NCBI RefSeq assembly: GCF_044324785.1
Contig: NZ_CP172127.1
Source: Escherichia coli
Lineage (GTDB): Bacteria > Pseudomonadota > Gammaproteobacteria > Enterobacterales > Enterobacteriaceae
Strand: one strand, 5' to 3'
DNA: 64,000 bases
Positions 37,276-64,000 of the stretch are shown here, piece by piece. The notes under the pieces are model-generated. The model was given only the letters and a program-made list of their open reading frames with translations, was not told the origin of the DNA and searched no databases. The number at the start of each line of letters is the position of its first letter. Position 1 is the first letter of the stretch. The position numbers were made by a program, and so were the translations under genes.

Positions 37276-38955
<1,680 letters not shown>

Positions 38956-40858: not shown

Positions 40859-40937
40859 TTAAGCCTGTAATGCCTTGCTTCCATTGCGGATAAATCCTAC
40901 TTTTTTATTGCCTTCAAATAAATTTAAGGAGTTCGAA

Positions 40938-42338: not shown

Positions 42339-42356
42339 TAACATAACGTTGTAAAA

Positions 42357-42404
42357 ACCGAATGCCCAACCTTTAAAAAACAGTTGGGCATTCGGTTGCT
42401 TATT
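42357..42404 (+). terminator. Rho-independent terminator after gadA
   Basis: accgaatgcccaac ... gttgggcattcggt hairpin followed by tgcttatt. Confidence 0.7.
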
Positions 42405-42697
42405 AATAGCAATAATATATTGGCTGTCTATTCATCGTGTTGATAAGATATATGTTATATGAATGTTTATTCAATGTAACGGATACTTCCAATGTCACGG
42501 CAAGGGATTATTTGCTTACTATTAATTTCACTGCGTTCTTAAGCACGCCTTTTGTATTATAAATCCAGTCATCCTGCCCGTAGATTATCATCCTGTTTTC
42601 CCGCTTCGTTTAAATTTATTTATCAATCAATTTGACTTAAGAGGGCGGCGTGCTACATTAATAAACAGTAATATGTTTATGTAATATTAAGCCAACT

Positions 42698-43522: not shown

Positions 43523-43539
43523 AGTTTTACTCAGAGATA

Positions 43540-43644
43540 AAAAAAACCCGGCATAGGGGACCGGGAAGAGGATAGTCTGCCGTCTCCAGACTAATAAACC
43601 GTTATAACACTCCCTGTTGGCACGGGAAACTTTGTGCTCTCAGT
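43540..43644 (-). ncRNA. gadY: GadY small regulatory RNA
   Basis: Minus-strand sequence actgagagcacaaagtttcccgtgccaacaggg...cccctatgccgggtttttttt matches recalled 105-nt GadY; terminator hairpin plus U-run at the 3' end; convergent with gadX. Confidence 0.8.
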
Positions 43645-43890
43645 AAGTTAAATATAACTTTTACTGGAAATAAGATCAGCCATTTTTTTATAAACATAAG
43701 CTATACGCTGTGCGAAAATATATTCGTGCTGCATTTACTTATTATCAATTAACTGTTATGCAAAACTACTTTGTGGATAAATTTTGGTCCTACCAAATCT
43801 GGCAGTTTTTGCGCTAAGAAACAGTCTGGCATCATTTCATTAGTATACTGAAATTGAAATAATCGCAGTAATGAAATATAAGGGATAGTC

Positions 43891-44619
43891 ATGACTCATG
43901 TCTGCTCGGTGATCCTCGTTCGTCGTTCATTTGATATTTATCATGAACAGCAAAAAATATCGTTGCACAACGAGAGTATCCTGTTACTGGATAAAAATTT
44001 GGCAGACGATTTTGCGTTTTGTTCACCGGATACGCGACGACTGGATATCGATGAGCTGACAGTTTGCCATTACTTACAAAATATTCGTCAGATACCACGC
44101 AATTTAGGGTTACATAGCAAAGACCGTCTGTTAATTAACCAGTCACCCCCCATGCCGCTGGTGACGGCGATTTTTGATAGTTTCAATGAATCAGGGGTAA
44201 ATTCACCGATACTGAGCAAAATGCTCTATCTTTCCTGTTTATCGATGTTTTCTCATAAGAAAGAACTGATCCCCTTACTTTTCAATAGTATCAGTACTGT
44301 TTCAGGAAAAGTTGAACGCCTTATTAGCTTTGATATCGCCAAACGTTGGTATCTGCGCGATATCGCGGAAAGAATGTATACCAGCGAGAGTCTCATCAAA
44401 AAAAAGTTGCAGGATGAAAATACCTGTTTCAGTAAAATATTACTCGCCTCCAGGATGTCGATGGCCAGACGATTACTCGAGTTACGTCAAATTCCTCTGC
44501 ATACTATTGCGGAAAAATGTGGATATAGCAGTACGTCGTACTTTATAAACACATTTCGACAATATTATGGTGTAACGCCACATCAGTTTGCGCAACATTC
44601 GCCAGGTACCTTTTCCTGA
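43891..44619 (+). CDS. gadW: AraC-family acid resistance regulator GadW
   Basis: 242 aa with AraC HTH. Confidence 0.92.
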   Translation: MTHVCSVILVRRSFDIYHEQQKISLHNESILLLDKNLADDFAFCSPDTRRLDIDELTVCHYLQNIRQIPRNLGLHSKDRLLINQSPPMPLVTAIFDSFNESGVNSPILSKMLYLSCLSMFSHKKELIPLLFNSISTVSGKVERLISFDIAKRWYLRDIAERMYTSESLIKKKLQDENTCFSKILLASRMSMARRLLELRQIPLHTIAEKCGYSSTSYFINTFRQYYGVTPHQFAQHSPGTFS

Positions 44620-44763
44620 CATATTTCGCATTTGAATATTGGTCAGGATCTCACACCTGCTTCATGTGAAACTCTTCCCTGATGATTTCTGCCGGGCTAC
44701 CGGCTAGTTCTCTTTCGCAGTTTGCCAGGCGGTATAGGTATTTTCAGGAGGAAAAGACTCGGC

Positions 44764-45045
44764 ATGTTTGGGATTATTAAGCTGACAATTCATACGATTA
44801 CGGGAATGTGGGTCAGTATTGTGCTGTTCAAATTGATGACGAATGGCTGGAGTGGTTTCTACTTTCAGTGCTGTGTACTAAGCCTGGTATTCCTGACGGT
44901 TAGCTGGTTGTTGAGTGGTGAATGGTTAGCAGGAAAGAGTAAGGCTGAACCTTCACGTTCAACCTTACTCTCATTTACACGTTACGCTTTTTTAAAGCGG
45001 GCAAAGAGATGTTCCACTACAACGAAAAAGACCGGAACGAAGTAA
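44764..45045 (+). CDS. Candidate small membrane protein ORF (93 aa) in the gadW-mdtF spacer
   Basis: AGGAGG at 44746-44751, ATG at 44764; two hydrophobic segments; 3' end overlaps the mdtF 3' end by about 60 nt; unverified. Confidence 0.25.
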
Positions 45046-48000: not shown

Positions 48001-48095
48001 ACCGGTAAGTTCATGATCGCCAGACCACCTGCAAGCATCATAATAATGGCAAGTACCCAGGCAAAAACCGGGCGATCAATAAAATAGTTAGCCAT
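44982..48095 (-). CDS. mdtF: RND multidrug efflux pump inner membrane subunit MdtF
   Basis: 1037 aa AcrB-like transporter. Confidence 0.93.
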
Positions 48096-48119
48096 GAAAG
48101 TCCCCTTAAGCCTGCAACG

Positions 48120-49277
48120 TTATTGTTTCGATTCGGTGCTGGCGTTTTCCTGGCTGGAGGAAATTGCTCGTGCTTTGATACCCGGACGAATGCGTTGCAA
48201 ACCGGAAACGATCACCCGATCGCCAGCCTGCAAGCCAGAGGTTACAACCCACTGGTCGCCGATGGCTTTGCTGGCTTCAATTTCGCGTAGCTGCACAACA
48301 TCGTCTTTATCCAGAATGAGCGCCGTTGCTTTACCCTGGGCGTTGTGGGTGACGCCTTCCTGCGGCACCAGTAATACATTCTGGCGGCTACCTTCATCCA
48401 CTAATGCCGTGACGTACATACCAGGCAGCAAGTCACCATTTGGGTTGGGGAAAATCGCCCGTAACGTCACGGAGCCCGTGGTTTCATCCACCGTCGGGTC
48501 GGAGAATTTCAGCGTGCCGGTCTGGCTGTAACGTTTACCATTTTCCAGATTGAGCTGTACTGGCGTACTGCCCTGAACCTGTTTGATTTGCCCACTGGCG
48601 ACCTCTTCTTTCATGCGTAAGAAATCTTGCACCGACTGCGTGAGATCGACATAAATCGGGTCCAGACGTTGTACGGTAACCAGCGAATCTGCCTGATTAG
48701 CGGTAACGAGTGCGCCGACGGTCACCGACGATTTCCCGCTGACGCCCGTAATCGGCGAGGTGACATTCGCGTATTGCAGATTGATCGTCGCCTGTTCAAC
48801 AGCCGCTTTGGCGACGGTGACATTGGCTTCTGCTTCATTCAACTGGGTGCGCGCGGTGTCGTAATCCTGACGGCTAACGTAGTTGGTCTTCAGCAACGAT
48901 GCCTGGCGGTTAAAGGTGATGCGGGCATTGCTGGCGGTAGAGAGCGCTTTCGCCAGCGTGCCTTTGGCGGAGTTCAGCTCGGCCTGTAAAGGTGCAGGAT
49001 CAATCTGATACAGCGAATCGCCCTGGTTCACTTTATCGCCTTCGATAAAGTTGCGTTTAATGATAATACCGCCCACCTGGGGACGTATCTCGGCAACTTC
49101 ATAAGGAACGGTTCTACCGGGCAATTCGCTCAATACATTGACCGAACCGGGGGAGAGTGTGACGACACCGACCTCAGGCGTCATGGCGGCGGCGTTTTCC
49201 GCCGATTTGTCATCGCAGGCGGTGAGCATCGCGCCGCAGAATAACAACGGTATTAACAGCTTTCTTCTTCTGTTCAT
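48120..49277 (-). CDS. mdtE: RND efflux membrane fusion protein MdtE
   Basis: 385 aa with lipoprotein signal (LLFCGAMLTAC). Confidence 0.93.
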   Translation of the reverse strand: MNRRRKLLIPLLFCGAMLTACDDKSAENAAAMTPEVGVVTLSPGSVNVLSELPGRTVPYEVAEIRPQVGGIIIKRNFIEGDKVNQGDSLYQIDPAPLQAELNSAKGTLAKALSTASNARITFNRQASLLKTNYVSRQDYDTARTQLNEAEANVTVAKAAVEQATINLQYANVTSPITGVSGKSSVTVGALVTANQADSLVTVQRLDPIYVDLTQSVQDFLRMKEEVASGQIKQVQGSTPVQLNLENGKRYSQTGTLKFSDPTVDETTGSVTLRAIFPNPNGDLLPGMYVTALVDEGSRQNVLLVPQEGVTHNAQGKATALILDKDDVVQLREIEASKAIGDQWVVTSGLQAGDRVIVSGLQRIRPGIKARAISSSQENASTESKQ

Positions 49278-49615
49278 TTTAGTCCCTGAAAATTCTTGAG
49301 AAATAACGGTTCTTTAAATTGCGCGCGAGGAGAGATATGAGGGATTTACAGACCAGCGGCATAGTGGGGTTGTCAGCCAGTAAGGTGGGATACAGGCATA
49401 GTGATCGACATGGTGAGGTCAACGACAAAAAAAATGTTGCCGTTCTGCCAACAGTTCCTGCCAGCATTCGGGCAACGAAGGGTTCTACTGGTGGATACAC
49501 ATACCAGGGGAATAAAGTCGTTTTAACCTCTCCTTTAGTAATCACCGGGGGTAATGAAATCAGCATCTGCATCCCTCGTCATGCCAGCCATCAATTTCAG
49601 TTGCTTATGTCCTGA

Positions 49616-50143
49616 CTAAAAATAAGATGTGATACCCAGGGTGACGATGTCGCTCATACGTCTTAGTTTCAGCTTGTACATAATGTTGAATTTCTGAATC
49701 TTTAATGTTTGTTGCGAAATATTGAGCGTCGACGTGATATTGCTTTCATTTTTATTTTTCAGAATCAGTTGCATAATTTTGAACTGATTATGTGAAAAAC
49801 ATAATTGTGAATTCTTATGGGGCAAGTGTTTACCATAAGTAATCTCAAGAAGATTTTTGATACTTTCTTTGCGGCTAACAAAATAAATAGGCGCTTTAGC
49901 TTTTAGTTTACTGATGTGATAAGGTGCCAAAACAATAATTCTCTCGGCATCTAATTTCTCCAGAAATTTAATCGCTTCTTCATCAAGGATATGATTGTGA
50001 TAGGTATCAATGATAACCTTGAAGGGTTTATTGCCTACTTTTTTGATCTCTGACAGGGAATTGATTTTTATCATTTCGTGATTATCTTTCAACTGCCAAA
50101 AGCCCTGTAAAAGAAAAGAATCTTTCGTCATGAGAAAAATCAT
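49616..50143 (-). CDS. gadE: LuxR-family acid resistance master regulator GadE
   Basis: 175 aa from MIFLMTKDSFLLQG; AAGGAG SD upstream; the track ORF is over-extended. Confidence 0.92.
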   Translation of the reverse strand: MIFLMTKDSFLLQGFWQLKDNHEMIKINSLSEIKKVGNKPFKVIIDTYHNHILDEEAIKFLEKLDAERIIVLAPYHISKLKAKAPIYFVSRKESIKNLLEITYGKHLPHKNSQLCFSHNQFKIMQLILKNKNESNITSTLNISQQTLKIQKFNIMYKLKLRRMSDIVTLGITSYF

Positions 50144-50941
50144 AACTTGCTCCTTAGCCGTTATCGTTTCGAACATGTCATCCTTTTCATTATTTACATC
50201 CTTGTCAGAATCGTTGTTCAATATAGTAAACGCCTATAAGAACTTTGCCCTTCGTGAACTAATACGTCTATTAACACTAATCAATGCTTCAGATTTATCC
50301 ATCACGCACTCCATATATTGATCCTAAGTAAAATTCCTGGTTGTTATCAGTTTGTAAACAGCAAACAAAAACTTAACGTTTGCGGATTACTGCCCAAGAA
50401 TAAGTTATCAATAACCAGTTTGTGATCTCTGAAGAATATTACTAAAGTTAAAATGTAATCCGATTTAAATATCGAGTCTCCTTGTTTCGACTTAAGCTGG
50501 CAATTGGATTGCCAGCTTTCTTTTAACGCATTGAAATTACCTGAGTAAATAACTCATTCATGTCTTCAGGTTTTTATATAGCGTCTGGAGACACGGATAT
50601 TTATGCAATGTAATCAACGCCAGTTGCAAAAAAATGAACCCGGATTACTTATTTAACCGCCCATAGCATCAACGCTTACGGAACTCTTTGTTCACTTTCC
50701 CACAGCACTTTTAAAACATTAAACCTGACTACGGAAAATATCAGCCATGATAATGTTTGAAATGGCTAATTTGCCATGGAGTGAAAAAAATCATATGAAA
50801 TTCAGTAGGTTGAAATAATCATCAGCAGGTAATTATTTCAATGATAGTGCGCAATTGATCTATAACGCTGTGTAGCGGAGAGAGTATTAATCGGATCATA
50901 GTCACATCAAGTGACTATGATCCGGGTGATAACCGGGATAA
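50144..50941 (-). promoter_or_regulatory. Large gadE upstream regulatory region
   Basis: About 800 bp AT-rich non-coding spacer between hdeD stop and gadE start; individual sites not resolved. Confidence 0.5.
50893..50923 (-). terminator. Palindromic hairpin downstream of hdeD
   Basis: ggatcatagtcac atcaa gtgactatgatcc perfect 13-bp inverted repeat about 20 bp after the hdeD stop. Confidence 0.4.
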
Positions 50942-51514
50942 TTATTGCTGCTTAACGAACAAACTGGCGAAGCTGAACAGGCTGGCGGCGCTAAATATCA
51001 GTTCAATACCCACCAGTGTGGAAACCAAAGTTACAGACACCATCGGCGTTGCACCAAGGAATATCCAGGCAATGACGATATCCAGCACACCAATAACGAG
51101 CTGTAGCCAGCTGCCTTTCATTGAACGCTGACGATACCAACTCATCAGGCGAATAACCCCTGCAACACAGAACAAACCGGCAATAAATGCCGCAATGGCA
51201 AAAATGCCCAGCTCCGGTGCGCGGATGAAGAAATAGCCGATCAATAAATAGGCGACTGCGACGAGGAAACCGGATAATACCGGCCAGAAATTATGACTGC
51301 GGTTGCTGAATAACCCGACAATAAGCGCAATGCCCGAGCAGATTAATAATGCACCCACTACTGTGCTTAAAATATCGCCAGAGACGAACGGGAAACTGAT
51401 ACACAGCAACCCGACGATAAACAGTAGCACGGCAATAAACTGGATTGCTCTGCGATGCTTTTTCAGCATCTCCAGATCAAACTTCAAAATTGTTGCCTTA
51501 TCTATATATAACAT
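50942..51514 (-). CDS. hdeD: Acid-resistance membrane protein HdeD
   Basis: 190 aa multi-TM; divergent from hdeAB. Confidence 0.92.
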   Translation of the reverse strand: MLYIDKATILKFDLEMLKKHRRAIQFIAVLLFIVGLLCISFPFVSGDILSTVVGALLICSGIALIVGLFSNRSHNFWPVLSGFLVAVAYLLIGYFFIRAPELGIFAIAAFIAGLFCVAGVIRLMSWYRQRSMKGSWLQLVIGVLDIVIAWIFLGATPMVSVTLVSTLVGIELIFSAASLFSFASLFVKQQ

Positions 51515-51768
51515 AGAACCACCCTATAAAATTAAGAAGAAAATCCCCTGCTATCAATCTATGCCAAAAACGCGTCTAAGAATGCAGTCGATTTAATAAA
51601 AATTTCCTAATTGCAGTATCTGATGCATCTGTAACTCATTGTATTGAAATAAAAATATCTGATTTTGATATTTTCCATCAACATGACATATACAGAAAAC
51701 CAGGTTATAACCTCAGTGTCGAAATTGATTCGTGACGGCTCTTTCACTTTATAGTTGAGGATATTACG

Positions 51769-52101
51769 ATGAAAAAAGTATTAGGCGTTATTCTTGGTGG
51801 TCTGCTTCTTCTGCCAGTTGTGAGCAATGCAGCGGATGCGCAAAAAGCAGCTGATAACAAAAAACCGGTCAACTCCTGGACCTGTGAAGATTTCCTGGCT
51901 GTGGACGAATCCTTCCAGCCAACTGCAGTTGGTTTTGCTGAAGCGCTGAACAACAAAGATAAACCAGAAGATGCGGTTTTAGATGTTCAGGGTATTGCAA
52001 CCGTAACCCCAGCTATCGTTCAGGCTTGTACTCAGGATAAACAAGCCAACTTTAAAGATAAAGTTAAAGGCGAATGGGACAAAATTAAGAAAGATATGTA
52101 A
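51769..52101 (+). CDS. hdeA: Periplasmic acid stress chaperone HdeA
   Basis: 110 aa with signal peptide. Confidence 0.93.
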   Translation: MKKVLGVILGGLLLLPVVSNAADAQKAADNKKPVNSWTCEDFLAVDESFQPTAVGFAEALNNKDKPEDAVLDVQGIATVTPAIVQACTQDKQANFKDKVKGEWDKIKKDM

Positions 52102-52216
52102 TTCCGGGAATGCGTTACATCGTACTTCCTTGCATATTGAACAGGCCGGAATATCTTCTTTAAAAGCAGCTATTCCTCCTGTTCATATATAATCTCTATA
52201 TTGAATGGGTTACAAA

Positions 52217-52543
52217 ATGAATATTTCATCTCTCCGTAAAGCGTTTATTTTTATGGGCGCTGTAGCGGCTTTGTCACTGGTGAACGCACAATCTGCGCTG
52301 GCAGCCAATGAATCCGCTAAAGATATGACCTGCCAGGAATTTATTGATCTGAATCCAAAAGCAATGACCCCGGTTGCATGGTGGATGCTGCATGAAGAGA
52401 CAGTATATAAAGGTGGCGATACTGTTACTTTAAATGAAACCGATCTCACTCAAATTCCTAAAGTGATCGAATACTGCAAGAAAAACCCGCAGAAAAATTT
52501 GTATACCTTCAAAAATCAAGCATCTAATGACTTGCCGAATTAA
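52217..52543 (+). CDS. hdeB: Periplasmic acid stress chaperone HdeB
   Basis: 108 aa from MNISSLRKAF with signal peptide. Confidence 0.92.
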   Translation: MNISSLRKAFIFMGAVAALSLVNAQSALAANESAKDMTCQEFIDLNPKAMTPVAWWMLHEETVYKGGDTVTLNETDLTQIPKVIEYCKKNPQKNLYTFKNQASNDLPN

Positions 52544-52555
52544 TGAGGTACAAGT

Positions 52556-52605
52556 AAAAAGGAGTAGCAAGTTGAGCCATCTTGCTGCTCCTTTTTGCAT
52601 TTTTA
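52556..52605 (+). terminator. Rho-independent terminator after hdeB
   Basis: aaaaaggagtagcaag ... cttgctgctccttttt hairpin followed by tgcattttt. Confidence 0.65.
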
Positions 52606-52606
52606 T

Positions 52607-53254
52607 ATGACAGCAGAATTTATTATACGTCTTATACTCGCAGCAATTGCCTGTGGCGCTATTGGCATGGAAAGGCAAATACGCGGCAAAGGAGCAGGGT
52701 TACGCACACATGTATTAATTGGCATGGGAAGCGCCCTGTTTATGATTGTTTCGAAATATGGTTTTGCTGACGTACTGTCTTTAGATCACGTCGGACTGGA
52801 CCCCAGCCGTATTGCTGCTCAGGTGGTGACGGGCGTCGGGTTTATCGGTGCAGGTAACATTCTCGTTCGTAACCAAAATATTGTAGGTCTGACGACGGCA
52901 GCGGATATCTGGGTGACCGCCGCTATAGGTATGGTTATTGGCAGTGGTATGTACGAACTGGGCATTTATGGTTCAGTGATGACCTTACTGGTGCTGGAAG
53001 TCTTCCATCAATTAACCTTCCGCCTGATGAACAAAAATTACCATTTACAGCTGACATTAGTGAACGGTAATACGGTATCAATGCTCGACTGGTTTAAGCA
53101 GCAAAAAATAAAAACTGATTTAGTTTCGTTGCAGGAAAATGAAGATCATGAAGTGGTCGCCATTGATATCCAGCTTCATGCCACGACGTCGATAGAAGAT
53201 CTGTTGCGATTATTAAAAGGTATGGCAGGGGTGAAAGGCGTTTCAATTAGCTAA
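52607..53254 (+). CDS. yhiD: MgtC-family inner membrane protein YhiD
   Basis: 215 aa from MTAEFIIRL. Confidence 0.88.
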   Translation: MTAEFIIRLILAAIACGAIGMERQIRGKGAGLRTHVLIGMGSALFMIVSKYGFADVLSLDHVGLDPSRIAAQVVTGVGFIGAGNILVRNQNIVGLTTAADIWVTAAIGMVIGSGMYELGIYGSVMTLLVLEVFHQLTFRLMNKNYHLQLTLVNGNTVSMLDWFKQQKIKTDLVSLQENEDHEVVAIDIQLHATTSIEDLLRLLKGMAGVKGVSIS

Positions 53255-53273
53255 TCTGTATAGTTATTTATTC

Positions 53274-53306
53274 GCAGGAGTACCGGAGCGGTACTCCTGT
53301 TGGTTT
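53274..53306. terminator. Bidirectional terminator between convergent yhiD and chuV
   Basis: ggagtaccg gagc ggtactcc hairpin followed by tgttggtttt. Confidence 0.6.
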
Positions 53307-54076
53307 TAATGATCGAGGACGATCAGTGGTGAATGGTTGGCAGGATCTTTAAGTACGGTAATATCCGCGCCGTAGAGCATTGTCAGTGCCTGCTGTGTCA
53401 ATACATCCTGCGGTTTACCATTTGCGATAACCTTTCCTTTTTGCATTAATACAATACGGTCTGCATAACGTGCGGCAAGATTTAGATCGTGCAATACGCA
53501 GCAAACATTGAATTGCCGTTCGTGAACTAACTGGCGTAATAAACGGAACAAGTGCTGCTGATGGTGAATATCCAGCGCCGAAGTTGGTTCATCAAGAAAT
53601 AACCATTTCGGTGAGGGAGTAGGTTCCCAGAGTTGCACCAGCAGGCGCGCTAATTGCACGCGCTGTTGTTCACCACCGGATAATTGCCGATAGTCGCGGT
53701 TTGCTAACGCCTGACAGTCACATAACGCCATTATTTGTGCTGTTTCATTATCCTTATTACCAGTGCGATGCGGATGCCGCCCCATCTGGATAACTTCTTG
53801 TACGCTGAATGGAAACGCCATGTGGCTATTTTGACGCATCACGGCCCGGTGTTTCGCCAGTTCAGTAATCGACCATTTATTTAATGGCTTATTAAACAAC
53901 CGACATTCGCCGCTATCAGGTTGAAGATAGCCGGTTAACTGGCGAAGCAGCGTAGATTTTCCCGCACCATTAGGGCCGAGAATGGCAACAATTTCCCCAC
54001 CGGGAAAAGTCAGCGAGACATTATCAGTCAGGCGTCGCCCATGAAGGCTATAAACCAGATTCTGGGCGCTGATCAT
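53306..54076 (-). CDS. chuV: Heme ABC transporter ATP-binding protein ChuV/HmuV
   Basis: 256 aa from [13 protein letters not shown]; Walker [10 protein letters not shown], signature LSGGEQQR; 4-bp overlap with chuU. Confidence 0.85.
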
Positions 54077-55065
54077 GTGATCCTCCGGTTGCGCAGAATC
54101 AACCACATAAAATAAGGACCACCAAGCAGGCTGGTTAATAATCCCACGGGCATTTCTGCTGGCTGTACCAGCGTGCGGGCAAGCGTGTCTGCCATCAGCA
54201 ATAAACAGGCTCCGGCGAGGGCGGAGCAAGGGATTAGCCAGCGGTGATTTGCTCCGGTAGTCATGCGAATCAGATGCGGGATCACCAGGCCAATAAAGCC
54301 GATAATGCCGCTTACCGATACGGCAGCACCAACGAGCAGTGAGCTCACTAACAGTAATTGCTGGCGTTTACGCTTAACGTTCACGCCGAGGTAGTGGGCT
54401 TCTTCATCACCGAGCTGCAGTAAATTCAGCGTTCCGGCGAGACAAGTTGTTGCGATAATGGCCGGTAGGATGAATGAACTGGCAACCAATAACGTCGGCC
54501 ATTGCGCCTGTCCAAGATTGCCCATCATCCACAATGTGAGTTGTCGTAGCTGCTGCTCATCGCCGATATAGCTCAGGATGCCGATCGCTGCGCCGCACAG
54601 GGCATTGATGGCGATACCAGCGAGTAATAATTGCATCATGCTGCCATCGCGATGGCGCTGCGTGATGAGAAAAATGATGGTGCAGACCACTAAACTTCCG
54701 ACAATGGCAAACACCATTTGCTCATAGAGCACTAGCACCACTGGGAAGGAGAAGGGCAGCACAATAGCAACGCCAACCATTAATGCAGAACCGCTACTGA
54801 CGCCAAGTAATCCTGGGTCAGCCATTGGGTTGCGAAAAAGCCCCTGCATAATTACCCCGGCGGTTGCCAACGCTGCACCTACCAGCACCGCCAGCAAAAC
54901 CCGTGGTAGACGAATATTGAGCCAGATATCGCGGTATTCCTCATCAAAAAGGGCATCAAAACTGATCCTTAACGCTCCCTGACTGGCACCGAACAGCACC
55001 AGAGCGAGCAATAATAGTGATAGCCTCATAAAGACCCTGGCGGAAGAGAGTGAATCCTTGAGCAC
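54073..55065 (-). CDS. chuU: Heme ABC transporter permease ChuU
   Basis: 330 aa FecCD-type permease. Confidence 0.85.
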
Positions 55066-55113
55066 GCAAAACTCCGTTACGACATTACGGCGCGGACATG
55101 CCGCGCCGGGGGA

Positions 55114-55737
55114 TCACGCCGGTTTCAGGTCCGGTTCAATCAGACTGTAGACCTGCTGGTTAAGTGCTGGCGCATTTGCCAGTTCATGGATATGTGCGGC
55201 GACATCGGTACGGTTAACAAAACCATGACACTCCTGATTTTGTATCCGTTGTGCTTTGCCCGTTGCCGCCCCATCAAGCAGACCGCCAGGGCGGAGAATG
55301 GCGTAATCAAGCTGGCTGGTTTGCAACCAGCTTTCCGCCAGCGTTTTTTCCCGTACCGCCTGACCAAACGCAGCCTTTGCTCGCTCCGATAAAAACGGCC
55401 AGCTATCGCCGCATCCCAAAGAGGTCACCAGAATCATGCGACTGATGCCGGCCTTTTCGGCCTCATCAATCACTGTTCTGTGCGCCAGATAATCCTGAGC
55501 TCCTCCCATTGTTGAGATGATAAGCGCATCCGGGCCAGCTGCGCGGCAAGCAGCCGCAACTACGCTGGCATCACAGGCGTCGCCTGTAAAAACCTGTACG
55601 CCTTGTTGCGCCAGTTTCGTGGCGGCATCGGCATGACGAACGACAGCAACGACCGGACGTTGCTCTGCCAGCGCCAGTTCAAGCGTTCTGGCACCCACAC
55701 CTTTTCCGCCTGCGCCAAAGAGTAGCCACGGCGTCAT
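55114..55737 (-). CDS. chuY: ChuY, NAD(P)-binding heme utilisation protein
   Basis: 207 aa with Rossmann-like N-terminus; position in chu operon. Confidence 0.8.
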   Translation of the reverse strand: MTPWLLFGAGGKGVGARTLELALAEQRPVVAVVRHADAATKLAQQGVQVFTGDACDASVVAAACRAAGPDALIISTMGGAQDYLAHRTVIDEAEKAGISRMILVTSLGCGDSWPFLSERAKAAFGQAVREKTLAESWLQTSQLDYAILRPGGLLDGAATGKAQRIQNQECHGFVNRTDVAAHIHELANAPALNQQVYSLIEPDLKPA

Positions 55738-56231
55738 CAGGCGTGTTCCTTTAACGATGCTGCCAGAGCATGGAAGGCGCTGACTTGTTCGCTCAGGAGC
55801 TGACGATGGTCATCCCTGCCGAGGAAGATTTTCAGCATTGCGCTGCCTTCTTTGTTGAAAAAGAGAATGGATGCGGTGTCCATGCCCATAAATTTACGTT
55901 CGATCAAGGCAATATGTGTGCAGTTTTCTGCTTTGATATGCCCGGACATGCCGTGCTTTCCGCGTAGGTTGAAATAGCCGTGGCGGTGGAAACCCGAAGG
56001 CAGTTCGCCGCTAAATTCGAGGATTACATCGGCAGTATGTACTAACGTGGTGACGTTGCCCCATTCGCAGACGGTATCCCAGATAGTATCGAATTTATCG
56101 CCTGACACTATGGTAGAGGAGGGCAGATTTTTCACTACTTCCAGCAGTGTGGTGTTGTATTGTTCGGCTACCACCTCCAGCGTACCGTCCGGCTCCGTTT
56201 TCAAAAATTCTTGTAACGAGACATGGCTCAT
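55737..56231 (-). CDS. chuX: ChuX heme utilisation/carrier protein
   Basis: 164 aa between chuW and chuY. Confidence 0.8.
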   Translation of the reverse strand: MSHVSLQEFLKTEPDGTLEVVAEQYNTTLLEVVKNLPSSTIVSGDKFDTIWDTVCEWGNVTTLVHTADVILEFSGELPSGFHRHGYFNLRGKHGMSGHIKAENCTHIALIERKFMGMDTASILFFNKEGSAMLKIFLGRDDHRQLLSEQVSAFHALAASLKEHA

Positions 56232-56243
56232 AAATCACTCCTG

Positions 56244-57581
56244 TTATGGTTTTTCACGCACAATCGCTGGCGCATTAAGTACCTGAATTAGTTCATTAAG
56301 AGACTGCAAAATATTGCTTGCCCAGAAACGACCTTCATTAGTCAGCCGCAGGCAAGTTGACGCATCGCGGCTTAAGCCTTTTTGGTGCCATTGAGCCAGT
56401 AACGGCGCGAGTTTTTCGGCATGTGGTGTAAGTTCATCCAGCGGTACACGCGCTGTTTCAACACCTGACTGCAAGGTATGACGCCATTGCGCATTACGTT
56501 CGGCGTTACGCATGATCATCATCAGCGGTTTTTTGCCTGCCGCGACGGATTCATGCCAGGTCTGCAGATTGCGTTCGTTCATCCAGGAGTAACCATTAAT
56601 CGAACCGCCGGCTCCGGAACCAAAGGCCAGACAATCGGCACCTTGTTTAATCAGCAGGTTATAGAGATTGCGTTCGCGTGTGGTACGGCCCCAGTGGCTG
56701 TTACTAATACAGCGCCAACCGGCTTCGTCCATGAAGTCACACCCTTGCAGATAAAGATCGCGACGTTCTGCCGGAGAGGGCACGGTAGTGCGCCCATTTT
56801 CCACGGCTTTGCCCAGCGGTGTATTGGGTAGGACATTGAGCGCATAGAGATCGACGCCGTCGAGACCGATATCGCGGGCAATAGCCAGATCTTCTCCCCA
56901 GGTTTGCGCATCCTGACCCGGCAGGCCAAACAGCAGGTCACAGACCACCGCTGCACGGTCGCGTTTGACCAGGCTTTCCATAAACGCAATGGCGGTTGGG
57001 CCATCCGAGGTGCGGGCCATTTTCTTGCGGATTTTGCTGTTAAACGACTGAATACCAATTGAGAAGCGGTTTGCTCCTGCATCAAGGCAAGCATCGATTC
57101 GCTCAGCGTCAAAATTCAGTACCCGGCCTTCGATAGTGATTTCACAATCAGGGGCCAGTGGCAGCTTTTCTCGTAATGTATTGATAATTCTGGCTAAATC
57201 GTGTGCCGAAAGCGCGGAAGGCGTGCCGCCACCGAAATAGACCGCGTGGATGGGGGCAGACTGATGCAATACGCTGTCCGCTTCCATTTCTATTTCACGA
57301 ATCAGGGCGTCGGTATAATGAGCACACGCATCTTCATTAAAACGGTTCTGATAAAAGCCACAAAACGTGCAGTGTGTCGCACAAAAAGGAATGTGTAGGT
57401 AAACCAGTCGCTTACGAGGTGATGCCGTTTGATTGATCATCTCTTGCCAGGTCTGTGCCAGTTGCTCTTTGGCAACCGGAATGGCTCCACGAAACGGCAT
57501 CATGGCGCGCCTGTCTTTAAATGGCTGATCACCGTCTAAAGCAAAATGTGGCGTGAGATCCAGGGTGTTATTTACGTTCAT
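56244..57581 (-). CDS. chuW: ChuW radical SAM (HemN-like) anaerobic heme-degrading enzyme
   Basis: 445 aa with CxxxCxxC motif (PFCATHCTFC). Confidence 0.85.
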   Translation of the reverse strand: MNVNNTLDLTPHFALDGDQPFKDRRAMMPFRGAIPVAKEQLAQTWQEMINQTASPRKRLVYLHIPFCATHCTFCGFYQNRFNEDACAHYTDALIREIEMEADSVLHQSAPIHAVYFGGGTPSALSAHDLARIINTLREKLPLAPDCEITIEGRVLNFDAERIDACLDAGANRFSIGIQSFNSKIRKKMARTSDGPTAIAFMESLVKRDRAAVVCDLLFGLPGQDAQTWGEDLAIARDIGLDGVDLYALNVLPNTPLGKAVENGRTTVPSPAERRDLYLQGCDFMDEAGWRCISNSHWGRTTRERNLYNLLIKQGADCLAFGSGAGGSINGYSWMNERNLQTWHESVAAGKKPLMMIMRNAERNAQWRHTLQSGVETARVPLDELTPHAEKLAPLLAQWHQKGLSRDASTCLRLTNEGRFWASNILQSLNELIQVLNAPAIVREKP

Positions 57582-57600
57582 TCGTCTGATTTAAATCCAT

Positions 57601-58455
57601 TTATTGCGGCCAAAGCTGCTGGTGTAAAGACTCAACGACATCAGCAATACGCGGACCCATTCCCAGAATCAGGTTTTGATCAACGGTGATAATGCGCTGG
57701 TTTTTCCATGCGGCAGTGTGGGTAATTCCGGCAATAGAACGTAGCCGATTAATATCGCCATCGACCATTTGTGAGGTTACGACAATCACTTCTGGATTGG
57801 CCGCAATCAGTGATTCTGCACTGTAGCTTTTGTACTGCTGGTGGGTTGCGACGTTTTCTGCTCCGGCAAGCGAAAGAATGGCGTCCGCGACGCTGCCTTT
57901 ACCGGCAACCTGTGGCGCACTTCCGCCTGCGGAGAGAATAAACATGGCTTTAACCGGGGCTTTTTTGGCCGCCACGTTTTGCTGTACTCGCTCCAGGCGT
58001 TGGTTGATCTGTGTCACCAGCGCCTCGCCTTGTTCAGGAACCTGTAACGTTTTTGCCAGTTGGCGAATGTTGGCGTACATCTGCTGAAGGGTGGCAGGCA
58101 CACGTGGCAGGGTGACGACGTTGACTTTCTGCGCTCGTAATTGGTCGAGCACAATTTGTGGCCCGGCATCCTGCCAGGTAATTACGCTATCCGGGTGAAG
58201 TGACAAAATGCCTTCGCTGCTGAGTTGTTTCCAGTAGCCAATATGCGGCAGTTTGGCGGTTTCTGGTGGATAAGATGTCGTTTCATCGACACCAACCACG
58301 CGTTCGCCAGCGCCCATCGCGTAGATTAGCTCCGTCAGCGATCCTCCTGCGACCACGATACGTTCGGCAGCCGTTACGCTAAAAGCCCAGCTAAGAGCCA
58401 GTACTGCCGTAAACAATTTTTTTCGTTTTACCGCGGTCTTCGCGGCAGAGGCCAT
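57601..58455 (-). CDS. chuT: Periplasmic heme-binding protein ChuT
   Basis: Start set at MASAAKTAVKRKKLFTAVLALSWAFSVTA (signal-peptide-like) downstream of the Fur box; the track ORF extends to 58593 and an alternative start is at 58515. Confidence 0.75.
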   Translation of the reverse strand: MASAAKTAVKRKKLFTAVLALSWAFSVTAAERIVVAGGSLTELIYAMGAGERVVGVDETTSYPPETAKLPHIGYWKQLSSEGILSLHPDSVITWQDAGPQIVLDQLRAQKVNVVTLPRVPATLQQMYANIRQLAKTLQVPEQGEALVTQINQRLERVQQNVAAKKAPVKAMFILSAGGSAPQVAGKGSVADAILSLAGAENVATHQQYKSYSAESLIAANPEVIVVTSQMVDGDINRLRSIAGITHTAAWKNQRIITVDQNLILGMGPRIADVVESLHQQLWPQ

Positions 58456-58540
58456 GGCTGAAATACATAACGTTAGTGGGGAAAAAAGAAACGGCCTGGT
58501 GATGATCCTTGGCATAATATGAGAACTCTTATCAAATTGA

Positions 58541-58560
58541 GAATGATCATGATTATCATT
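58541..58560. promoter_or_regulatory. Fur box, chuT-side promoter
   Basis: gaatgatcatgattatcatt resembles the Fur consensus GATAATGATAATCATTATC. Confidence 0.6.
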
Positions 58561-58890
58561 TGAGTTATATATGAAATACAACCGTCGATTCAATACGCAA
58601 GGCGTTACAAGCGTATTTATTTTTGATTTTTATCAAGATGCTTCGTCAGCTAACGTTCTTGTTACCGACTAAATTTCAGCGCGGGAAAAAGCTGAGAACC
58701 CAGAGATATCGAGGCTTGCAGAGCAAAGCGAAGAGAAAATTATCACTGTTAACGACAAAGTTTAGTAATGAGGTCATGGGGGAATAACCATAAAAACAAA
58801 GTGGTTTCCAGGGCGCAGGATAAGTTTCATAACCCCCTGTTTATTGTGTTAATGGCGGTTAAAAAAAAGCTTGATCATAAAAAATTGATC

Positions 58891-58909
58891 GATAATAATT
58901 CTCATTATC
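58891..58909. promoter_or_regulatory. Fur box, chuA-side promoter
   Basis: gataataattctcattatc is a near-consensus Fur box about 290 bp upstream of chuA. Confidence 0.7.
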
Positions 58910-59170
58910 ACGTTTGCGTTTAACAAAATACGGCCATATGGATAACAAAGCCATATCATTTACAAGGGGTAACGCACAGCGCTCTTCACTCCTGATGGGG
59001 CATATCGTTTTGCCTGACAAAGAGGGCGTGCTTTTGCGTATTTGCCGAGATACCAGGCAATTTCATGGGATATAAACGCCTGTAAACTCACCCGGCGAAT
59101 ATTATCGCTCTGAATTTTAAATAAATTTATTTCTCGCCAGCCACCCCGGTATTAACCCAGGCAGCCAGCA

Positions 59171-59198
59171 TTTTTTATTTTCCTCATGGAGAATCGCT
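59171..59198 (+). promoter_or_regulatory. chuA 5' UTR U-rich element able to pair with the SD (candidate FourU thermometer)
   Basis: ttttttattttcctc directly upstream of catggag-ATG; the U-run and ucctc can pair with the ggag SD. Confidence 0.5.
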
Positions 59199-61181
59199 AT
59201 GTCACGTCCGCAATTTACCTCGTTGCGTTTGAGTTTGTTGGCTTTGGCTGTTTCTGCCACCTTGCCAACGTTTGCTTTTGCTACTGAAACCATGACCGTT
59301 ACGGCAACGGGGAATGCCCGTAGTTCCTTCGAAGCGCCTATGATGGTCAGCGTCATCGACACTTCCGCTCCTGAAAATCAAACGGCTACTTCAGCCACCG
59401 ATCTGCTGCGTCATGTTCCTGGAATTACTCTTGATGGTACCGGACGAACCAACGGTCAGGATGTAAATATGCGTGGCTATGATCATCGCGGCGTGCTGGT
59501 TCTTGTCGATGGTGTTCGCCAGGGAACGGATACCGGACACCTGAATGGTACTTTTCTTGATCCGGCGCTGATCAAGCGTGTTGAGATTGTTCGCGGACCT
59601 TCAGCATTACTGTATGGCAGTGGCGCGCTGGGTGGAGTGATCTCCTACGATACGGTCGATGCAAAAGATTTATTGCAGGAAGGACAAAGTAGTGGTTTTC
59701 GTGTCTTTGGTACTGGCGGCACGGGGGACCATAGCCTGGGATTAGGCGCGAGCGCGTTTGGGCGAACTGAAAATCTGGATGGTATTGTGGCCTGGTCCAG
59801 TCGCGATCGGGGTGATTTACGCCAGAGCAATGGTGAAACCGCGCCGAATGACGAGTCCATTAATAACATGCTGGCGAAAGGGACCTGGCAAATTGATTCA
59901 GCCCAGTCTCTGAGCGGTTTAGTGCGTTACTACAACAACGACGCGCGTGAACCAAAAAATCCGCAGACCGTTGAAGCTTCTGATAGCAGCAACCCGATGG
60001 TTGATCGTTCAACAATTCAACGCGATGCGCAGCTTTCTTATAAACTCGCCCCGCAGGGCAACGACTGGTTAAATGCAGATGCAAAAATTTACTGGTCGGA
60101 AGTCCGTATTAATGCGCAAAACACGGGGAGTTCCGGCGATTATCGTGAACAGATAACAAAAGGAGCCAAACTGGAGAACCGTTCCACTCTCTTTGCCGAC
60201 AGTTTCGCTTCTCACTTACTGACATATGGCGGTGAGTATTATCGTCAGGAACAACATCCGGGCGGCGCGACGACGGGCTTCCCGCAAGCAAAAATCGATT
60301 TTAGCTCCGGCTGGCTACAGGATGAGATCACCTTACGCGATCTGCCGATTACCCTGCTTGGCGGAACCCGCTATGACAGTTATCGCGGTAGCAGCGACGG
60401 CTACAAAGATGTTGATGCCGACAAATGGTCATCTCGCGCGGGGATGACTATCAACCCGGCTAACTGGCTGATGTTATTTGGCTCATATGCCCAGGCATTC
60501 CGCGCCCCGACGATGGGCGAAATGTATAACGATTCTAAGCACTTCTCGATTGGTCGCTTCTATACCAACTATTGGGTGCCAAACCCGAACTTACGTCCGG
60601 AAACTAACGAAACTCAGGAGTACGGTTTTGGGCTGCGTTTTGATGACCTGATGTTGTCCAATGATGCTCTGGAATTTAAAGCCAGCTACTTTGATACCAA
60701 AGCGAAGGATTACATCTCCACGACCGTCGATTTCGCGGCGGCGACGACTATGTCGTATAACGTCCCGAACGCCAAAATCTGGGGCTGGGATGTGATGACG
60801 AAATATACCACTGATCTGTTTAGCCTTGATGTGGCCTATAACCGTACCCGCGGCAAAGACACCGATACCGGCGAATACATCTCCAGCATTAACCCGGATA
60901 CCGTTACCAGCACCCTGAATATTCCGATCGCTCACAGTGGCTTCTCTGTTGGGTGGGTTGGTACGTTTGCCGATCGCTCAACACATATCAGCAGCAGTTA
61001 CAGCAAACAACCAGGCTATGGCGTGAATGATTTCTACGTCAGTTATCAAGGACAACAGGCGCTCAAAGGTATGACCACTACTTTGGTGTTGGGTAACGCT
61101 TTCGACAAAGAGTACTGGTCGCCGCAAGGCATCCCACAGGATGGTCGTAACGGAAAAATTTTCGTGAGTTATCAATGGTAA
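59199..61181 (+). CDS. chuA: TonB-dependent outer membrane heme/hemoglobin receptor ChuA
   Basis: 660 aa, signal peptide, TonB-box region, C-terminal aromatic residue (..FVSYQW). Confidence 0.9.
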   Translation: MSRPQFTSLRLSLLALAVSATLPTFAFATETMTVTATGNARSSFEAPMMVSVIDTSAPENQTATSATDLLRHVPGITLDGTGRTNGQDVNMRGYDHRGVLVLVDGVRQGTDTGHLNGTFLDPALIKRVEIVRGPSALLYGSGALGGVISYDTVDAKDLLQEGQSSGFRVFGTGGTGDHSLGLGASAFGRTENLDGIVAWSSRDRGDLRQSNGETAPNDESINNMLAKGTWQIDSAQSLSGLVRYYNNDAREPKNPQTVEASDSSNPMVDRSTIQRDAQLSYKLAPQGNDWLNADAKIYWSEVRINAQNTGSSGDYREQITKGAKLENRSTLFADSFASHLLTYGGEYYRQEQHPGGATTGFPQAKIDFSSGWLQDEITLRDLPITLLGGTRYDSYRGSSDGYKDVDADKWSSRAGMTINPANWLMLFGSYAQAFRAPTMGEMYNDSKHFSIGRFYTNYWVPNPNLRPETNETQEYGFGLRFDDLMLSNDALEFKASYFDTKAKDYISTTVDFAAATTMSYNVPNAKIWGWDVMTKYTTDLFSLDVAYNRTRGKDTDTGEYISSINPDTVTSTLNIPIAHSGFSVGWVGTFADRSTHISSSYSKQPGYGVNDFYVSYQGQQALKGMTTTLVLGNAFDKEYWSPQGIPQDGRNGKIFVSYQW

Positions 61182-61229
61182 TCATCTGCCCCGATATTTC
61201 GGGGCATTTATCTGGAAGGAAGAGAGACA

Positions 61230-62258
61230 ATGAACCACTACACACGCTGGCTTGAGTTAAAAGAACAAAATCCCGGAAAGTACGCGCGTGACATCGCAGG
61301 TTTAATGAATATCAGCGAAGCAGAACTGGCATTTGCACGCGTCACGCACGATGCGTGGCGGATGCGCGGCGATATCCGTGAAATTCTGGCGGCGCTCGAA
61401 AGTGTTGGCGAAACCAAATGTATTTGCCGTAATGAATATGCAGTCCATGAGCAAGTTGGTACGTTCACAAACCAGCATTTGAACGGACATGCCGGATTGA
61501 TCCTCAATCCGCGCGCGCTGGATTTACGTCTGTTTCTCAATCAATGGGCCAGTGTTTTCCACATCAAAGAAAACACGGCTCGTGGCGAACGCCAGAGTAT
61601 TCAGTTCTTTGATCATCAGGGCGACGCATTACTAAAAGTTTATGCCACCGACAATACCGATATGGCGGCATGGAGTGAGCTTCTGGCACAGTTTATCGCC
61701 GATGAGAATACGTCGCTTGAGTTAAAAGCCGTGGATGCGCCAGTCGTTCAAATGCGAGCCGATGCCAGTGTGGTCGAGCAAGAGTGGCGGGCGATGACCG
61801 ACGTTCATCAGTTTTTTACGTTGCTCAAGCGCCACAACCTGACGCGCCAACAGGCGTTCAATCTGGTGGCAGACGATTTGGCCTGCAAAGTATCCAACAG
61901 TGCGTTGGCGCAAATTCTTGAATCTGCACAGCAGGATGGCAATGAAATCATGGTGTTTGTTGGCAACCGTGGCTGCGTACAGATTTTCACTGGCGTGGTA
62001 GAAAAAGTGGTGCCAATGAAAGGTTGGCTGAATATTTTCAACCCGACGTTTACTCTTCATCTATTAGAAGAGAGCATTGCTGAAACCTGGGTAACCCGTA
62101 AACCTGCTAGTGACGGTTATGTGACCAGTCTGGAATTGTTTGCCCATGATGGTACACAGATAGTGCAACTTTATGGTCAACGTACAGAAGGCGAACAGGA
62201 GCAAGCGCAATGGCGTAAGCAAATTGCTTCGCTGATACCGGAAGGCGTTACTGCATAA
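61230..62258 (+). CDS. chuS: Heme oxygenase/heme-degrading protein ChuS
   Basis: 342 aa immediately after chuA. Confidence 0.88.
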   Translation: MNHYTRWLELKEQNPGKYARDIAGLMNISEAELAFARVTHDAWRMRGDIREILAALESVGETKCICRNEYAVHEQVGTFTNQHLNGHAGLILNPRALDLRLFLNQWASVFHIKENTARGERQSIQFFDHQGDALLKVYATDNTDMAAWSELLAQFIADENTSLELKAVDAPVVQMRADASVVEQEWRAMTDVHQFFTLLKRHNLTRQQAFNLVADDLACKVSNSALAQILESAQQDGNEIMVFVGNRGCVQIFTGVVEKVVPMKGWLNIFNPTFTLHLLEESIAETWVTRKPASDGYVTSLELFAHDGTQIVQLYGQRTEGEQEQAQWRKQIASLIPEGVTA

Positions 62259-62318
62259 CGTATAATTAAAGGGAGGTCTGGCTATTTATTGCTGGGCCTC
62301 TTTATATTAATCAATCGA

Positions 62319-62849
62319 TCACACCAGATAATCAATATGCTGATGGCGTACCAACTCATTGATCCGCTTAAGATTGAGGATCATCATGATATTGTGTTTA
62401 TGGCAGTAGAACGTTTTTAGCGATATTTTCAGTTTCTCCAGAATATCTTCCGTTGTCATTTGATTCGCAATGCAGCTCAGAACCTGATGCTGCTTGCGCG
62501 AAAGGGACACATCCGCTTCAGGCACAGAGCAGTAACTGCCATTGATGAGTGCGACAAAGTCGATGATGGTGATAGTTCGCGGAACAAAGGTCACCGGTAC
62601 TTTCCCCAGGCAGCGTTTAATATTAAAGGGAGAGAAAATAATCACATGGACAGGTTTTAATCGTTCAATTTGAGTGAGCAAATTAGAATGAAATACATTA
62701 TTCATTAATGTATCAATAATGACGAAGGCATGCTGATGCAACATTACGTCGATCTCTTCTTCGTTCTGTATATGAACGACATTACCTTTACTCAGAATGT
62801 TTTTCATCGCAGTGAAGAACATCGTATCCCTGGTAATTATAAGAAACAT
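62319..62849 (-). CDS. dctR: LuxR-family regulator DctR (YhiF)
   Basis: 176 aa, length and position between slp and the acid island. Confidence 0.88.
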   Translation of the reverse strand: MFLIITRDTMFFTAMKNILSKGNVVHIQNEEEIDVMLHQHAFVIIDTLMNNVFHSNLLTQIERLKPVHVIIFSPFNIKRCLGKVPVTFVPRTITIIDFVALINGSYCSVPEADVSLSRKQHQVLSCIANQMTTEDILEKLKISLKTFYCHKHNIMMILNLKRINELVRHQHIDYLV

Positions 62850-63001
62850 AACCGACTCCTGGTGCGGACATTAACTTTATAATCAGTTTGCCAAAGGTAA
62901 TTAACAGGACAGGGCTTATAATAATAGTTAGCTGGCTGTGTATTAATTTGATGTAATGCATGATGCAGATGCTGAGAAAGCATCTGCATCTCTCGGTGGT
63001 G

Positions 63002-63568
63002 TTATTTGACCAGCTCAGGTGTTACCTGACTCACCGCATTGGTGTAGTAAGGCGCACCCCAGCCCGGTTCCGGCCAGAATGCACCATAGCCGTAATCCCA
63101 CAGGTTATAGGTGGTATTAACCACTTCTCTCAAATGCCACACCTGGATGCCCTGCATATTCACTTCGAGGAAGTTATACGGGACTTTATTGATAAAGCCA
63201 GGTTGTTCACCCTGAATGGTACCGAGGATGGTAACAAAGTGATTACGATAGTTCACTGGATCAAGGAAGCCGCTTTGTCTGGCGAGCAGTCGGCCCTGAT
63301 AGTTGGCTTCAATATCAGGCTTCGCATAGCTATCCAACGGTAATACAGCGATTTCTAACAACGTATCCGTTTTGCCATTGATAACGTTGATAACCTTCCC
63401 ACCAAAGCGCGCTTGTTGACCAACATATAACCCCGGCTGGTTATGAACAGCAACAAAACTTTTTTGAATATCAGGTTGGTTATTGCCTTTGATATTTTGC
63501 GGAATTGAACTACATGCGGCAAGCAAAAATGAAAGGCTGAGGATGAGTGCACCTTTTGTCATGTTCAT
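63002..63568 (-). CDS. slp: Outer membrane starvation lipoprotein Slp
   Basis: 188 aa from MNMTKGALILSLSFLLAACSS with lipobox LAAC; the track ORF is over-extended. Confidence 0.9.
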   Translation of the reverse strand: MNMTKGALILSLSFLLAACSSIPQNIKGNNQPDIQKSFVAVHNQPGLYVGQQARFGGKVINVINGKTDTLLEIAVLPLDSYAKPDIEANYQGRLLARQSGFLDPVNYRNHFVTILGTIQGEQPGFINKVPYNFLEVNMQGIQVWHLREVVNTTYNLWDYGYGAFWPEPGWGAPYYTNAVSQVTPELVK

Positions 63569-64000
63569 GTTACTATCCTTATCAACAAATATTAAAACCA
63601 TAATAGATATTTCTTTATAGTTTTCATCTGATTCTGAGGCGATATGCCTGATAGTAACGTAAACCTGTCTGATGTTTATATCCCTTCTGTTTAGTTCAAT
63701 TCCGTTATTTTGGGGCGTGGCATGAGTATCCATCGCCCCATAATATAACCCTTTGTTTTAAAATTACATAAAATCTATTTTTATTCAATGATTATAAAGT
63801 GCTAATAATCAATATTATGGTATTATATTCTGATAATGATTTGATAAGCGAATTCTTTTGCCAGTTGGTATTTCTATTTCCACCCCATAATTTATAGTTT
63901 TTTCATCAGGTAGCGATCTCTTTAAATAAGGTGCGTATGACATTTTTTTAGGATGAAACGTCTCGTGTTGAAATATTTCGAATTGATATTCAGACATTTG

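Follow-up and report, generated by a model that had tools for sequence, protein, structure and literature searches.

The stretch of Escherichia coli DNA analysed here (64,000 nucleotides of contig NZ_CP172127.1, referred to as the window) carries a set of heme-utilisation genes, chu, in the acid fitness island. Judged from sequence comparison, positions 53306–62258 almost certainly represent the canonical E. coli chu locus (shu in Shigella), complete and, it appears, functional, in its usual chromosomal position within the island, where it seems to be old and vertically inherited. The arrangement of chu at this site, between yhiD and dctR, has already been published, and nothing about the system itself is new. 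The list of open reading frames (ORFs) for 48000–64000 shows six ORFs on the minus strand followed by two on the plus strand, precisely the order chuVUYXWT and chuA-chuS that the initial annotation had proposed, and the limits it gave, 53306 and 62258, are the stop codons of chuV and chuS, respectively. The eight genes and the evidence for each are as follows.

53306–54076, minus strand: chuV, heme ATP-binding cassette (ABC) transporter ATPase, 256 amino acids; NCBIfam NF010068, 394 bits against a cut-off of 261; RefSeq annotation.
54073–55065, minus strand: chuU, heme ABC transporter permease of the FecCD family, 330 amino acids; Pfam FecCD, 319 bits; RefSeq name ShuU/ChuU.
55114–55737, minus strand: chuY, anaerobilin reductase with NAD(P)H-binding fold, 207 amino acids; structures 5GUY and 5FFQ (ChuY/ShuY-like), E 6e-134; Pfam NAD_binding_10; RefSeq name.
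55737–56231, minus strand: chuX, cytosolic heme carrier, 164 amino acids; TIGR04108 (HutX), 210 bits against a cut-off of 110; ChuX structure 2OVI, E 2e-107.
56244–57581, minus strand: chuW, radical S-adenosylmethionine (SAM) methyltransferase of anaerobic heme degradation, 445 amino acids; TIGR04107, 572 bits against a cut-off of 400.
57601–58515, minus strand: chuT, periplasmic heme-binding protein, 304 amino acids as annotated; ShuT structure 2R7A, E 2e-161; Pfam Peripla_BP_2; RefSeq.
59199–61181, plus strand: chuA, TonB-dependent outer-membrane heme/hemoglobin receptor, 660 amino acids; TIGR01785, 588 bits against a cut-off of 317.
61230–62258, plus strand: chuS, cytoplasmic heme-degrading protein, 342 amino acids; ChuS structures 4CDP and 1U9T, E about 1e-225; two Pfam HemS/ChuX domains.

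Family models, structures, Pfam domains and RefSeq names thus all identify the products as ChuA, S, T, W, X, Y, U and V, so the mismatch that the initial annotation had named as refuting its reading did not arise, and for ChuV, ChuX, ChuW and ChuA the NCBIfam equivalog or subfamily models were passed by wide margins. All eight ORFs are full length with their catalytic or binding motifs present: ChuV has the Walker A sequence GPNGAGKS and an LSGGE signature, ChuW a radical-SAM CxxxCxxC motif at residue 67, ChuA a TonB box (ETMTVTA) at residue 30, and ChuS retains His193. The gene limits were taken from the RefSeq annotations of strain N3, O157:H7, strain 042 and M70, a member of a large class of strains about 96.5% identical to the window; these annotations are given as 99–100% identical. 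The mechanical ORFs of chuV and chuT extend upstream beyond the annotated starts. All eight gene lengths equal those in O157:H7, M70 and 042.

A 12-kb query (52000–64000) aligned over its full length to annotated E. coli chromosomes, with 99.2% identity to N3 and at most 98.6% to all others. The features under this query match annotated chuA, chuS, shuT/chuT, hutW/chuW, hutX/chuX, chuY, shuU/chuU and the heme ABC ATPase, and no genes other than chu are annotated inside the segment in the RefSeq comparisons. Taken together, the end-to-end alignment at 98.6–99.2%, family scores far above the cut-offs and PDB E-values from 1e-107 to 1e-225 rule out a chance match. O157:H7 carries this locus and K-12 does not.

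Going by what is established for these families, and by the sequence features that we examined, ChuA would take heme across the outer membrane, ChuT would carry it through the periplasm, and ChuU together with ChuV would pump it into the cytoplasm. There, ChuS is expected to degrade heme when oxygen is present, with ChuX holding heme, while ChuW would open the ring anaerobically to give anaerobilin, which ChuY would then reduce. The genes are arranged as two divergent operons, chuAS and chuTWXYUV, on either side of a regulatory region that they share, and the two divergent promoters with their Fur boxes would provide repression by iron, whereas an RNA thermometer of the FourU type at the chuA ribosome-binding site would limit translation below body temperature.

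The chuT-chuA intergenic region (58516–59198, 683 bp) holds the two best Fur-box sites of the whole 64-kb window, as found by scanning all of it with a 19-bp consensus. The regulatory features of the locus are the following.

58871–58899, plus strand: promoter-like site of chuA (TTGATC-17-AATAAT).
58891–58909: best Fur-box match, 17/19, overlapping the chuA promoter-like site.
58539–58563: two overlapping Fur-box matches (16/19 at 58539–58557, plus one of 15/19), second- and third-best in the window, just upstream of the chuT start in the short chuT leader.
59170–59201, plus strand: chuA/shuA FourU RNA thermometer covering the Shine-Dalgarno sequence; Rfam RF02597, 60.1 bits against a gathering score of 58.
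61187–61206, plus strand: terminator-like hairpin between chuA and chuS, 8-bp stem with 6 GC pairs followed by TTTATCTGGA (terminator scan).

The placement of the chuA promoter-like site and its Fur box implies a 5' untranslated region (UTR) of about 290 nt, which fits the published 293-nt chuA 5' UTR fragment and the shuA UTR of about 300 nt (PMC3660397). All 32 of the 32 thermometer positions equal the Rfam consensus and the hairpin folds with a z-score of -2.2; the function of the chuA/shuA thermometer has been demonstrated experimentally (PMC3660397). For shuT, Fur control, a 42-nt 5' UTR and a second, weak thermometer have been described (PMC5458455). The presumed 42-nt chuT leader also folds into a hairpin over the Shine-Dalgarno sequence, with a stability no greater than that of shuffled sequences (z 0.25). 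It should be underlined that a weak thermometer could fold in this way, but that the fold does not amount to evidence for one; the suggestion of a chuT thermometer comes from PMC5458455. A minus-strand promoter-like site at 58543–58514 was considered as the chuT promoter and rejected, as it overlaps the annotated chuT start codon. The hairpin between chuA and chuS may act as an attenuator. A permissive Rfam scan of 53000–62600 returned nothing besides the chuA thermometer. This intergenic region, between chuT and chuA, was also seen to change at a far higher rate than the genes: its identity to M70 is 88.5%, and about 80% to two divergent Escherichia lineages introduced below (L004 and L005), compared with 95–99% and 89–94%, respectively, for the coding regions, while the Fur box and the thermometer stay conserved within it.

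These features bear on whether the locus, although present, might have decayed to a non-functional state in this strain. Partial deletions do occur elsewhere (strains HH97 and L003, see below), but the eight full-length ORFs with intact motifs, the two intact Fur boxes and thermometer, and the 98–100% identity of the proteins to those of N3 make decay highly improbable here.

Compared with known systems, the window differs from the chu loci of O157:H7 (EDL933/Sakai), of uropathogenic and other E. coli and of strain 042 by allelic differences only: the eight genes, the divergent layout, the gene lengths and the yhiD/dctR junctions are the same, at 96.5–98.3% nucleotide identity. The shu locus of Shigella dysenteriae (Wyckoff et al. 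1998; regulation in PMC3660397 and PMC5458455) is orthologous, and RefSeq names several of the window's genes shuT or shuU; the likeness, which was assessed via models and structures and not Shigella DNA, includes a thermometer identical to the Rfam shuA/chuA model and the ShuT match (2R7A, E 2e-161). The hemRSTUV/hmuRSTUV loci of Yersinia, Enterobacter, Citrobacter and others are more distant. Their receptor is 68–88%, HemS/ChuS 65–85%, the permease about 60–69% and the ATPase about 50–59% identical to the window's counterparts, whereas the T component is only 30–36% identical. Moreover, these loci are encoded entirely on one strand (receptor, then S, T, U and V), are not linked to acid-resistance genes, and lack chuWXY in their vicinity; only in Yersinia do these three occur, upstream and in the same orientation. 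It follows that the divergent arrangement of eight genes is the form that belongs to Escherichia/Shigella. With regard to the anaerobic hutWXZ/hmuW modules of Vibrio and Fusobacterium, ChuW and ChuX of the window match the HutW and HutX equivalog models, but the third gene is ChuY, a reductase with an NAD(P)H-binding fold, and not HutZ or a flavodoxin; the anaerobic heme-degradation chemistry of these modules has been described (PMC10404700, PMC10114669).

We determined the extent of the chu-specific DNA by direct comparison and alignment with K-12, which placed it at 53260–62319 (9060 bp) with breakpoints good to about 2 bp. The BLAST blocks between window and K-12 stop at 53259 and restart at 62319. 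The left breakpoint (53259/53260) falls directly after TAATCTGT, five bases past the yhiD stop, and the right one (about 62319) directly before TCACACC, the end of dctR. In K-12 MG1655 the position is uninterrupted, as the initial annotation had stated; yhiD and dctR converge 41 bp apart there, and a 36-bp filler, GTGGCAGCGTAGCCAGACTCACCGTAAGCCTGAAAT, stands in place of the chu segment and is unique to K-12-type genomes. The genes on either side of the segment and the hairpins at its two ends are as follows.

52607–53254, plus strand: yhiD, left flank, MgtC/SapB family; NCBIfam NF007431, 400 bits; 100% identity to yhiD of N3.
53274–53300: G+C-rich hairpin between the yhiD and chuV stop codons; on the plus strand a 12-bp stem followed by TGGTTTTAAT (called by the terminator scan on the plus strand only).
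62270–62303, plus strand: hairpin following chuS where the chu-specific DNA ends on the right; stem of 13 bp, then UUUAUAUUAAU.
62319–62849, minus strand: dctR (yhiF), right flank; RefSeq annotation in N3 and K-12, 97–99.8% nucleotide identity.

The initial annotation had taken the hairpin after yhiD for a bidirectional terminator bounding the chu segment on the left. A strong hairpin is indeed present, with folding energies of -19 to -21 kcal/mol and z-scores of -3.6 on the plus and -6.0 on the minus strand, and all chu-positive lineages that were aligned retain it. However, its T-rich tail lies on the plus strand only; the minus (chuV) strand after the stem reads CGAAUAAAUAAC and no terminator was called there. 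Judged from its sequence, the hairpin resembles an intrinsic terminator for yhiD transcription alone; a bidirectional role is not clearly indicated, though it may still impede transcription from chuV. Nor does it mark the boundary: since K-12 homology ends at 53259, the hairpin, which has no counterpart in K-12, belongs to the chu-specific DNA itself. The hairpin after chuS (-20 kcal/mol, z -4.5, plus strand only) is likewise kept across chu-positive lineages, with variation in loop length.

A search for terminal direct or inverted repeats and for a target duplication gave short matches at chance level only, none of them at the segment ends, and no transfer RNA (tRNA) gene was found in 44000–64000. 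The usual marks of a mobile or pathogenicity island, namely an integrase or transposase, a tRNA attachment site and flanking direct repeats, were thus not seen at this segment. The 36-bp K-12 filler was also compared with the chu ends as a possible deletion scar. This was rejected, as the sole match was a 9-mer, TAGCCAGAC, to the inverted region of the chuS terminator; its score was reached by 11 of 1000 shuffles in that one of four tests and, set against the whole segment, the match lacks significance; we give it no weight as evidence.

That the segment lies in the acid fitness island is evident from its surroundings, where slp, dctR, yhiD, hdeBAD, gadE, mdtEF, gadW, gadX and gadA are found around chu in the K-12 order. 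Window positions 34146–53259 and 62319–63999 are collinear with K-12 positions 3674370–3655250 and 3655213–3653529, respectively; slp occupies 63002–63568 and the window ends at 64000, just past it. The small RNAs GadY (43534–43647) and ES205 (49427–49498, minus strand, just downstream of gadE) are also present, as expected for this island. A 9-kb insertion between yhiF and yhiD has been reported for the acid fitness region of Sakai (Bergholz et al. 2007, PMC2241611), islands of about 22 kb with and about 13 kb without chu have been described (Carter et al. 2022, PMC9144400), and the chu arrangement was already accounted for in the xenoGI study of 2018, which cites Wyckoff et al. 1998 for the S. 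dysenteriae shu locus (PMC5799925). A literature search on chuA with yhiD, and on gain versus loss of chu, turned up nothing beyond these three and the other papers cited here.

The content of guanine plus cytosine (GC) is 50–55% in chu and 35–45% in the adjacent hde, gadE, dctR and slp DNA (hdeD-yhiD and dctR-slp). This contrast matters for the proposal, raised by the xenoGI authors, that chu and the acid fitness genes arrived jointly as one island. The two were inferred to share their most recent common ancestor (PMC5799925), and they are contiguous in all chu-positive Escherichia examined here. On the other hand, the GC contrast is sharp, an island that is nearly complete but lacks chu is reported for E. 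fergusonii (PMC5799925), and chu homologues in other enterobacteria are unlinked to hde, gad or slp genes within 10 kb. We therefore regard joint arrival as quite unlikely.

Next to the structure of the site we considered its distribution among 5426 complete E. coli genomes, a collection without Shigella. DNA of chu was found in 2238 of them, and 2234 hold no less than 80% of the locus. Coverage of 80% or more of the query including both flanks was likewise seen in 2234, and the equality of the two counts indicates that intact copies sit at the yhiD/dctR site; no copy was found on a plasmid. The K-12-type empty junction is present in 3179 genomes, mostly with at least 99% identity. The yhiD/dctR site is thus essentially a two-allele polymorphism. 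In E. coli HH97 (L085, NZ_CP116409.1, about 533112–533447) a partial deletion has removed the locus from mid-chuY through chuS, leaving chuV, chuU and the 3' portion of chuY joined straight onto the dctR end, with chuX through chuS gone. HH97 would type as chuA-negative even though chu DNA remains in its genome.

The window's closest relative is N3 (99.2–99.5%), followed by a group at 98.3–98.6% that includes 042, by O157:H7 (97.7%), and by the large class at 96.5%, which we assume to be phylogroup B2. Among well-known strains the nearest is 042, of phylogroup D, at 98.3%. The source strain belongs to a sparsely sampled lineage, with N3 as the one close relative among the complete genomes. That it is chu-positive, as the initial annotation had stated, was confirmed with the Clermont chuA primers: the pairs chuA.1b/chuA.2 and ChuA.1/ChuA.2 match exactly within chuA (59434–59453, 59443–59462 and 59702–59721) and give products of 288 bp and 279 bp, respectively. 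The phylogroup is not assignable from the window, as arpA, yjaA and TspE4.C2 lie outside it.

To what extent the two alleles reflect gain or loss was considered from a scan for ChuS in a species-dereplicated set, with one genome per species; the scan is pattern-based and may miss loci. Besides many other enterobacteria, ChuS was found in three Escherichia representatives only (L003, L004 and L005). In all three the chu genes lie between yhiD and dctR, and the breakpoints are the same at the junctions retained. L004 and L005 carry the whole locus and L003 chuA-chuS only. We describe L004 and L005 simply as divergent Escherichia lineages; loci of 21 kb do not settle species identity. Identities to the window were as follows.

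L003: chu 95.0%; flanks 95.8 and 93.0%.
L005: chu 90.6%; flanks 92.9 and 89.2%.
L004: chu 91.1%; flanks 89.1 and 85.8%.

A similar agreement between chu and flank divergence was seen within E. coli (N3, 042, O157:H7 and M70). Since the divergence of chu tracks that of its flanks, recent transfer is excluded, and this speaks for the locus having occupied the site already before these lineages diverged. The locus of L003 (Escherichia sp. MOD1-EC7003) has kept chuA and chuS but is without chuTWXYUV and the chuT promoter. At the scar in place of chuTWXYUV, directly after yhiD (5888–5975 of that locus), there is a truncated repeat, and a second, full copy, oppositely oriented, interrupts the chuA 5' UTR (about 6285–6405); both are presumably ERIC-like.

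The initial annotation had called the locus an insertion, a word that implies a lineage-specific, horizontal gain of chu by pathogenic lineages into a K-12-like acid fitness island that was uninterrupted until then. Several observations agree with such a gain. K-12 and 3179 other genomes are without the locus and have a clean 41-bp intergenic region, the composition of chu is unlike that of the low-GC island around it, the segment has been called 'a 9 kb insertion' (PMC2241611), and chuS was not found in the scanned representatives of several other Escherichia species. Against this, all intact E. coli copies share identical junctions, which recur in three divergent Escherichia lineages in which chu divergence tracks the flanks, ruling out recent transfer; an integrase, an insertion sequence (IS) element, a tRNA gene and a target duplication are all absent; and the loci of other enterobacteria are differently organised (one strand, T component about 32% identical), with no obvious recent donor among them. 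A gain in this lineage therefore appears unlikely, and the word 'insertion' probably has the polarity wrong.

Loss in the K-12-type lineages, in contrast, is a reasonably probable explanation on the sequence comparisons made here. The K-12 flanks fall within E. coli diversity (98.9% and 96.6%), so the simplest history is one loss, or one replacement by an empty allele, toward the K-12-type groups; that loss does occur follows from the deletions in HH97 and L003. Most likely, the absence of chu in K-12-type genomes goes back to a single ancient loss or allele replacement that left the 36-bp filler.

Some points nevertheless weigh against an old locus followed by loss. The GC contrast implies that chu and the island have different compositional histories. 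A derivation of the 36-bp filler from chu could not be demonstrated, which leaves loss without the support of a deletion scar. The polarity argument leans on parsimony together with the E. coli phylogeny as commonly accepted, which we took over as established. In addition, the pattern-based scan gave no match in the species representatives named E. albertii, E. fergusonii, E. marmotae and E. ruysiae, which means that the locus is patchy in the genus and leaves room for an ancestral empty allele persisting by recombination. However, chu has been reported in E. albertii (PMC5799925), so the scan may have missed some loci.

Elsewhere in the window, a few other differences from K-12 were noted. 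A 2.35-kb low-GC block between yhjJ and kdgK (25842–28192), absent in K-12, contains five or six small ORFs, which in RefSeq for N3 are 'hypothetical' apart from one 'immunity protein TriTu family'. The block is whole in N3 only among the complete E. coli genomes, about two-thirds of it being present in about 170 others including 042, and it may be an orphan immunity-gene cluster. The rdlD antitoxin RNA gave two matches (5602–5667 and 6085–6150, minus strand) 483 bp apart, compared with the single ldrD/rdlD copy of K-12, pointing to an ldr/rdl type I toxin-antitoxin module duplicated in tandem. Finally, a short stretch of the yhjD-yhjE intergenic region (34002–34145) did not align to K-12, being 144 bp in the window and 162 bp in K-12.

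As a check of annotation, the analysis indicates that the window derives from a chuA-positive E. coli with a predicted complete system for heme uptake and degradation that is probably regulated by both Fur and temperature, a system linked to pathogenic lineages. Its one modest addition is the evidence for an old, vertically inherited locus at the yhiD/dctR site. We lean towards the view that chu already resided there before E. coli and several sister Escherichia lineages diverged, and that all chu-negative E. coli (the 3179 genomes with the empty junction) stem from one deletion allele with the same 36-bp filler, acquired by descent or by recombination. If this is true, the phylogroup marker chuA would record a loss and not the gain of a virulence gene.

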